DNA of 9,706 bases from the IMG/VR virus record IMGVR_UViG_2778261009_000007; one strand, 5' to 3'. Positions 501-1,147 of the stretch are shown here, piece after piece. The stretch is from a virus. Taxonomy: Duplodnaviria; Heunggongvirae; Uroviricota; Caudoviricetes. The first letter of the stretch is position 1; each line of letters begins with the position of its first letter. The notes under the pieces were generated by a model. The model saw only the letters and a program-made list of their open reading frames with translations. It was not told where the DNA came from and made no database searches. The translations under genes and the position numbers were made by a program.

Positions 501-539
501 TAATCACTACGATTGCGAGCATACTGTCACAAATGACAA

Positions 540-574
540 CTCGTAGAATCTGTTAACAAACTAGATTCTACGAG
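540..574 (+). promoter_or_regulatory. Perfect 12-bp inverted repeat CTCGTAGAATCT-N11-AGATTCTACGAG (candidate RNA hairpin or dimeric-protein operator) whose right arm overlaps the Shine-Dalgarno of the gene starting at 581
   Basis: Seen: 540-551 is the exact reverse complement of 563-574, with an 11-nt loop containing GTTAAC. GAGG at 572-575 lies 5 nt before ATG 581. A smaller palindrome TGTCAcaaaTGACA sits at 525-538. Function is inference. Confidence 0.4.
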
Positions 575-580
575 GTTTCA

Positions 581-1147
581 ATGACACCACGACAATTACT
601 CGAAGACGTCAAATCCCGCTTCACACCTTTGATTGCGGATGAACCTGCCTTACTGGAATCCCTGCTAAGAAAAGCATTGGGAACCTACCAGGATAGGGCG
701 GGACACATCAAGCGGATACGCTTCACTGATCAGACCTGTAAATCACTTGCTTGCCCTGCTGATTTTCTTGCGCTCGTATCGGTTACGGATCATACCGGCG
801 ATCTTGTCTACTCCGATGTTTACGATGGGAATATCGAGCTTGAAGATACTCATCGAGCGGTATACCCGCTGAATGTGTCATATCTGGCTAATTTACGTGA
901 TATGGATCTGGATAATGGGGAAGTGCCACCTGAAATCATTGGGTTACTTTCTGACTATCTGGAAGTGTTAATCGCGATACCTAACACTGATCGCCTGCGA
1001 AGAATATCTATCGCGGGGAAACTCGATGCCAGCAATTTATCCGACGAGAACACGCTGTATCAGCGAAAGCTGGATCTGGAAGAGAAAATGAGCGCAACAA
1101 GGGCAATTATCCCGGGGATTGTTCTTTTCTCATCCATGTTGAAGTGA
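581..1147 (+). CDS. Hypothetical phage tail morphogenesis protein (188 aa), immediately upstream of the tail tube gene
   Basis: Seen: ATG 581 preceded by GAGG, TGA stop at 1145-1147, 10-nt gap to the next gene. No motif I can recognise. Role is inferred from operon context only. Confidence 0.7.

Follow-up and report, generated by a model that had tools for sequence, protein, structure and literature searches.

The window, i.e. the whole stretch of 9706 nucleotides that was analysed, is 97-99% identical to Punavirus P1-like phages and phage-plasmids and, judged from its genes, is assigned to the tail operon of a P1/P7-type phage-plasmid with the order pmgC-tub-pmgB-sit-pmgA-bplA-16-R. The pmgC gene has been found essential in P1 by CRISPRi (PMC10695390). 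The features of interest, all located around the pmgC start, and the genes following them are these:

15..500, + strand: 3' part of the upstream cassette gene, encoding a DUF5384 membrane protein of the P7 Upf50.0 type
525..538, + strand: small palindrome TGTCAcaaaTGACA, the right half of which belongs to the Lpa box
531..539, + strand: '-22 region' (Lpa box) of the late promoter LPsit, AAATGACAA, placed by annotation transfer and preceded by cAC (528-530)
540..551, + strand: left arm of the inverted repeat, CTCGTAGAATCT, made up of CTCG (which separates the box from the -10), the -10 hexamer itself and 2 more nt
544..549, + strand: -10 hexamer TAGAAT of LPsit, placed by annotation transfer, inside the left arm
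552..562, + strand: loop GTTAACAAACT, with the dyad axis at 557, the most variable part among relatives
563..574, + strand: right arm AGATTCTACGAG, situated in the 5' leader of pmgC and ending in the GAG of the Shine-Dalgarno sequence
572..575, + strand: Shine-Dalgarno sequence GAGG of pmgC, 5 nt before the ATG
581..1147, + strand: pmgC, with which the late tail/baseplate operon begins
1158-1769: tub, P1-type tail operon gene
1784-2665: pmgB, P1-type tail operon gene
2747-6169: sit, P1-type tail operon gene
6166-6525: pmgA, P1-type tail operon gene
6522-7955: bplA, P1-type tail operon gene
7952-8791: gene 16, P1-type tail operon gene
8870-9304: R, P1-type tail operon gene

At the other end of the window, homology to P1 extends to position 9579, and the terminal inverted repeat of IS26 (GGCACTGTTGCAAA) starts at 9580, the window ending at 9706. 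The tail-fibre gene S (start at approximately 9316-9320) is thus interrupted by the IS26 end about 260 bp into the gene, and the element carrying the window may be a defective or IS26-rearranged phage-plasmid.

The original prediction described the two arms as exact reverse complements separated by 11 nt, followed by a GAGG Shine-Dalgarno (SD) sequence and the ATG at 581, and all of these have been confirmed at the positions given above. It also held that such a repeat would hardly arise by chance, which agrees with the finding that, when the whole window was shuffled with its dinucleotides preserved, 3 of 300 shuffles (1%) contained a perfect repeat of at least 12 bp; since this value applies to the entire 9706 bp, the repeat should be far rarer still in a single 80-nt spacer. 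It is the sole perfect inverted repeat of at least 9 bp (loop 3-20) in the window—hence also the longest—and the repeat search extends it to 18-nt arms (534-551 and 563-580) that are 89% complementary. As RNA, the segment 515-600 folds at -24.3 kcal/mol (z = -5.3), none of 200 shuffles being as stable, and the postulated stable hairpin including the GAG of the SD can indeed form. Only this GAG of the GAGG lies within the core stem, at its base. The 12th pair (T551-A563) is perfect only in the P7-type variant carried by the window, P1 itself having the 11-bp core, a G.A mismatch or bulge, and further G-C pairs. In the window variant, a helix with internal loops spans 525-586 with approximately 23 pairs. 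A search against Rfam 15 gave nothing at or above the gathering score, the only match being a chance one to the mir-10 hairpin (20.3 bits vs 47.5).

The second, small palindrome noted earlier at 525-538 is present, but it does not represent an independent element, being the region of the Lpa '-22' box. Its left half (525-529) is specific for the cassette and, in the folded read-through RNA of this variant, can pair with 582-586 across the AUG. Near-identical palindromes with TTAGCTAA have been seen at 4076-4089 in sit and 7281-7294 in bplA (ACGTTAGCTAATGT, AATTTAGCTAATTT).

Concerning the left arm, it is identified, by orthology and by a position weight matrix (PWM), as the core of the known P1/P7 late promoter LPsit. 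In the P1 record AF234172, LPsit is annotated upstream of pmgC on the minus strand (-10 at 46608-46613 and '-22 region' at 46618-46626), and the P7 record AF503408 annotates it identically (49458-49477, with the -10 at 49458-49463). With the pmgC ATG used as the anchor for the transfer, AF234172 46608-46626 and AF503408 49458-49477 correspond to window 531-549, the distance from the -10 to the ATG being identical. The window thus shares with P1 and P7 the position of the promoter, the -10, the 9-bp '-22' box, the 4-nt gap and the orthologous pmgC downstream; in both records, however, just the -22 and -10 are listed and the 11-12-bp dyad linking the promoter core and the pmgC ribosome-binding site (RBS) is not annotated. 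It should be pointed out that LPsit itself has already been annotated, so that what is known of it is unchanged by the present finding. The P1 late promoters are described as dependent on Lpa, which binds a conserved 9-bp inverted repeat (PMC10695390), and late-gene transcription in P1 also requires the host SspA (PMC8201110). The literature search, the coverage of which did not extend to the P1 genome paper, revealed no paper naming LPsit, and the published P1vir RNA-seq study gives no transcription start for the LPsit region.

The alignment of 11 annotated P1 late promoters yielded the common layout (A/G)AC-AAGTGACTT-N4-TANNNT. The Lpa box at 531-539 agrees with the consensus AAGTGACTT at six of nine positions, departing from it at one position more than the box of P1 (AAATGACTA), and the gap between the box and the -10 is 4 nt (CTCG), as in nine of the ten other P1 late promoters. 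With the PWM built from nine P1 late promoters, LPsit being excluded, approximately 19,400 window positions were scored; the site 528-549 is the second best of them with 14.1 bits, behind the known promoter Ps/LPs at 8818-8839 (26.3 bits). The score of LPsit is lower than that of most P1 late promoters (21-27 bits), but higher than that of LPpmgL (11.9). No sigma-70 -35/-10 pattern was found in 300-900. As for the suggestion that each arm contains a -10-like TAGAAT, the left hexamer is the annotated -10 of LPsit in both P1 and P7, whereas the right one has found no promoter support: a bottom-strand promoter using it would have TTGTCG, 19 nt off, as the best -35-like element, without a sigma-70 call, and the corresponding 22-mer is outside the 12 best late-promoter PWM matches in the window.

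The scan provided also some observations on other sites. The sequence of Ps/LPs is gAC AAGTTACTT ctct TACAAT, and directly 5' of it there is a G+C-rich hairpin, TCACCCCGTCC/GGGCGGGGTGA (8795-8819), the right arm of which overlaps the start of the promoter site; it is a different way to isolate a late promoter from upstream transcription, and LPpac in P1 likewise comes after a terminator-like hairpin. The third-best match (8.9 bits) is situated at 521-542 on the minus strand (GAG TTGTCATTT GTGA CAGTAT) and uses the same box reversed; it may represent a divergent late promoter that has its Lpa box in common with LPsit, an arrangement that P1 shows for LP26 and LPpmgL. This match depends on the P7-type cassette sequence and is absent from P1.

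The DNA preceding LPsit differs among P1-like elements. The product of the upstream gene in the window matches the Pfam family DUF5384 (E = 3e-43), and upf50.0 and upf50.5 are annotated at the corresponding position of the P7 record; the cassette is thus of the P7 type (a TraT-like lipoprotein plus the DUF5384 membrane protein), P1 having simABC instead. Identity to P1 c1-100 begins only at 529 and that to other P1-like elements at about 528-529. Among the P1-like loci, at least five unrelated upstream cassettes have been found, the shared homology starting exactly at the Lpa box (...ACAAATGAC). The slot 5' of LPsit (window 1-529, L002 3436-4500 and loci L005-L090) is therefore occupied by same-strand cassettes that vary from element to element, such as simABC in P1, the pair of genes mentioned above in the window and P7, and YfjT-family genes in others; the junction at the Lpa box looks like a recombination hot spot or a moron slot. 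On the opposite strand, 5' of the accessory cassettes, there is ATTGCTCTAAT..., which we take to be a C1-operator-like sequence (1270-1320 in L092, i.e. phage JK004, and 3120-3150 in L002); in JK004 it comes after the terminator that follows the bplB-like gene. This suggests that the accessory cassettes may be under a control linked to the immunity repressor.

A cassette gene on the same strand is a likely source of read-through transcripts. Between its stop codon (500) and pmgC (581), no terminator-like site was found in this variant. In P1 itself, an intrinsic-terminator-like hairpin with a T-run follows simC, 5' of the repeat, and read-through in P1 may, given this hairpin, already be low.

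For the conservation analysis, 86 P1-like loci from IMG/VR and GTDB were collected, comprising 25 distinct upstream sequences that are closely related. The repeat is conserved in related phages, its stem being retained in those relatives whose PmgC is 74-100% identical. All 14 distinct variants of the P1 clade share an unchanged 11-bp core stem, whereas differences occur in 12 columns of the loop or the flanks, including 551, 553, 558, 559 and 562 (loop), 537-539 (box) and 577 and 580 (SD-ATG spacer). Conservation alone is nevertheless weak evidence for the helix, because the promoter constrains the left arm and the SD a part of the right arm. The clade of JK004 and of the Salmonella, Klebsiella and Enterobacter elements (74-78% PmgC identity) has the promoter and hairpin in the form CTCGTAAAATCGG(A)...(T)CCGATTTTACGAG, in which the third -10 position has changed from G-C to A-U on both arms (TAGAAT/ATTCTA to TAAAAT/ATTTTA); the stem counts 13-14 bp, and the loops are shorter (8 or 6 nt) and unrelated in sequence. 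The innermost pair differs by lineage (U-A, G-C or G.A), and two wobble changes occur, U.G (locus L107) and G.U (the window type), the first -10 position showing U.G in place of U-A in one Klebsiella aerogenes element. In the alignment of 18 variants, 94.9% of cells are paired vs 29-47% with the partners slid; two pairs exhibit changes on both sides, and the helix is recovered by RNAalifold. On this alignment, the covariation is real but thin: it consists of one clean compensatory pair, probably reflecting one evolutionary event, together with the wobble and innermost-pair changes.

Outside these two clades the situation is different. In D6, Serratia, Pantoea and locus L113, pmgC lies directly after the bplB-like gene or is fused to it, and neither promoter nor hairpin has been found there. 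This suggests an ancestral contiguous operon 22-21-pmgG-bplB-pmgC-tub, which appears to have been split in P1 by the immunity/replication block. In two loci (L111 and L112) a terminator is present and the PWM detects no late promoter, and two others (L104 and L106, 65-68% identity) possess a terminator and a weaker LPsit-like site before pmgC; in the latter two, the pairing between the -10 and the SD is either 7 bp with one G.U or degenerate, no better than in shuffles. The strong hairpin is thus a feature of the P1/P7/JK004 group, in which same-strand accessory cassettes abut the promoter.

The consequences of the hairpin depend on where the transcription starts. The start of Ps has been mapped 9 nt after its -10 (M81956 annotation) and, by analogy, that of LPsit should be at approximately 556-558, 7-9 nt after the -10, i.e. 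in the hairpin loop. The dyad axis at 557 is 8 nt after the -10 of LPsit, and this distance is 7-8 nt in relatives with loops of 11, 8 or 6 nt. With the -10 inside the left arm and the predicted start in the loop, the LPsit mRNA would lack the left arm and could not form the hairpin; sequestration of the RBS would therefore be limited to transcripts starting further upstream. The original prediction, according to which the hairpin would sequester the RBS, accordingly needs to be divided: it is supported, as a prediction, for upstream-initiated RNA, but not for the mRNA of LPsit itself.

The calculated energies point in the same direction. For the hairpin by itself, four sequence variants gave values of -17.3 to -18.4 kcal/mol. 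Opening the segment from the SD to the AUG costs 6.8 kcal/mol in the LPsit-initiated RNA of the window and 12.5-18.5 kcal/mol in the read-through RNA, varying with the amount of upstream context; for the versions of P1, JK004, Salmonella and Klebsiella, the corresponding values are 4.5-7.5 and 12.8-19.3 kcal/mol. The extra cost in read-through RNA is thus 6-14 kcal/mol, and shuffles of the 30-nt promoter segment reached the observed penalty in just 0-2 of 200 cases in each of the five lineages. These thermodynamic values suggest that externally initiated transcripts would be translated poorly.

Based on the above, the most likely role of the repeat would be the silencing of read-through transcripts, in analogy to the fold-back inhibition in IS10. 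The repeat would then represent two functional elements mirrored about the transcription start—the promoter core on the left and the pmgC leader on the right. Lpa, together with the host SspA, would start RNA polymerase at LPsit, at about 556-558, and the late mRNA, having no left arm, would leave the pmgC RBS accessible. The RNA entering from the same-strand cassette, on the other hand, would contain both arms and form the hairpin of approximately -18 kcal/mol that pairs the SD, the outer helices of the P7-type variant additionally pairing the AUG, so that pmgC would not be translated from it. Rho-dependent polarity on untranslated RNA is an established general mechanism, and through it the downstream tail genes would probably be silent, too. 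To such an insulator, making the expression of the tail genes depend on the late promoter, about an even chance is given.

Among the known systems, a close counterpart is offered by IS10/Tn10 and the related devices of IS3 and IS50, which silence the translation of transposase from RNA started outside the element. The native IS10 promoter pIN starts inside the repeat. In the account of Davis, Simons and Kleckner (1985), as cited in PMC13181058, the transposase translation signals of IS10 and IS3 are described as sequestered in mRNA structure. What the pmgC leader has in common with the fold-back inhibition in IS10/Tn10 (also IS3 and IS50) is that the 3' arm of the repeat covers the translation initiation signals—here the SD, and in this variant also the AUG by the outer helices—that its own promoter is predicted to start within the repeat, so that only RNA initiated outside folds, and that the purpose would be insulation from neighbouring transcription. 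The two differ in that LPsit would protect a late structural operon of a phage and not a transposase, its 5' arm is a promoter core (-10 and spacer) whereas that of IS10 is terminal IS sequence, it has no antisense RNA partner, and its fold is a predicted one. In IS200, the stem-loop at the left end pairs the SD of tnpA and inhibits 30S binding (PMC4513863); it is likewise a leader hairpin acting in cis on the SD, but it is a part of the native 5' UTR, with all transcripts being repressed, whereas the native transcript of LPsit is predicted to escape, and in IS200 a separate terminator deals with impinging transcription.

The same outcome, insulation, could also be reached at the level of transcription, if the hairpin paused or weakly terminated the read-through RNA just before pmgC and so blocked its synthesis, which would also provide the cassette mRNA with a stable 3' end. 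The stability of about -18 kcal/mol, the lack of any other structure between the stop codon at 500 and pmgC in the P7-type context, and the GUUUCAAU after the hairpin (four U in 8 nt) are compatible with this. There is, however, no U-tract in the tail GTTTCAAT and no intrinsic-terminator call in 300-900; the stem has G-C in 5 of its 12 pairs and the loop 11 nt; the tail varies among relatives (GGTTTCA, GGTATCC, GGTTGGC and GGTTGCC), never being T-rich; and P1 keeps the repeat despite the canonical terminator-like hairpin after simC. Termination or pausing is therefore regarded as rather unlikely.

The repeat was originally also proposed to act as DNA, i.e. as an operator for a dimeric regulator. 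In that case the arms would be half-sites for a protein of phage or host origin that blocks the -10 of LPsit—keeping, for example, the promoter off in lysogens—or helps Lpa. Repressor operators classically have this layout of a perfect dyad overlapping a -10; the two half-sites are also conserved and have undergone the change from G-C to A-T symmetrically. This proposal is not supported, since the dyad does not recur in P1, its spacing is variable and its symmetry in DNA is broken by the wobbles. The search for other copies found the 11-bp half-site (with up to one mismatch) nowhere else in the 94.8-kb P1 genome, and at LP26 no repeat accompanies the same box and -10. Between the cores there are 13 nt in the P1/P7 clade vs 12 nt in the JK004/Salmonella clade, and the G.U and U.G positions of the RNA mean mismatched half-sites in the DNA; both observations are easier to reconcile with a helix in RNA than with an operator bound by a protein. 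The centre-to-centre distance of approximately 23-24 bp is, moreover, unusual for HTH dimers. Comparison by eye with the consensus sequences gave no match to a C1 operator, a LexA box or an IHF site. An operator is thus considered very unlikely.

It is similarly improbable that the repeat has no function of its own and is a by-product, e.g., of an inverted duplication when the promoter module joined pmgC, its arms being kept only through the separate constraints of promoter and SD. The promoter module is a recombination unit with its left boundary exactly at the box, more distant relatives manage without the hairpin, and the close relatedness of the sampled sequences speaks for this explanation as well. 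Yet within the P1 clade no variation is seen in the eight bases of the right arm that lie outside the SD (GATTCTAC), although the loop and spacer next to them do vary; the one change observed in this part of the arm is compensated or wobble-compatible; other clades have different loops and a stem lengthened to 13-14 bp; and the stability of the hairpin is held at -17 to -18 kcal/mol.

A site for RNase III, or another double-strand-specific nuclease, that would separate the cassette mRNA from that of the tail operon and, by cleavage, either destroy or activate the pmgC initiation region, is likewise hardly probable: the long helix of the window variant resembles phage intercistronic processing hairpins, but its outer parts need cassette-specific sequence left of 529 that is absent in P1, the helix conserved in most variants has 11-14 continuous bp and is structurally weak, whereas RNase III substrates in vivo typically cover about two helical turns, and Rfam contributed no match above threshold.

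Returning to the silencing of read-through transcripts, the arrangement was compared with the other late promoters of P1. Sequences resembling an anti-SD between the -10 and the expected +1 have been seen at LPdar (TACCAT ta CCTCCT ... AGGAGG, AF234172 31183-31230), LP23 (TAAAAT CTCTTCC ... GGAAGAG, 58773-58843 of the same record) and LPhot (AATAAT ... ATTATT, 86521-86570). A general rule for P1 late promoters was rejected, as the duplex energies of promoters with their matched translation initiation regions do not surpass those of mismatched combinations (permutation p = 0.37), and a large opening penalty is found only at LPsit, 10.7-11.7 kcal/mol vs 0-4.4 for the other P1 late promoters. Tentatively, and with rather less confidence than the silencing itself, LPsit may be seen as a 'self-mirrored promoter', in which the leader would be reverse-complementary to the core promoter, with the +1 as the centre, so that the start site would encode the translation competence of the RNA. 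If so, the moron cassettes upstream could be swapped without leaking expression of the tail genes in lysogens, and if the same logic applied also at LPdar, LP23 and LPhot, it would represent a general, so far undescribed layer of late control in temperate phages.

Taken together, the repeat is real, non-random and conserved, and its identity is largely explained by the annotated LPsit and the RBS of pmgC. The function probably added to these, a masking of this RBS that depends on the start site and insulates the late operon, would be a new case of an already known principle of regulation. P1 is a classic among the model phages and, at the same time, a widespread backbone of phage-plasmids that carries resistance genes. 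If the model is true, the expression of its tail genes would be subject to two controls, Lpa at the promoter and an RNA fold depending on the start site, which would explain how highly variable cassettes expressed in lysogeny can be placed directly 5' of an essential and potentially harmful late operon on the same strand. The design, in which the promoter core is at the same time the anti-SD, would be compact and portable, and could serve in insulating synthetic operons from read-through.
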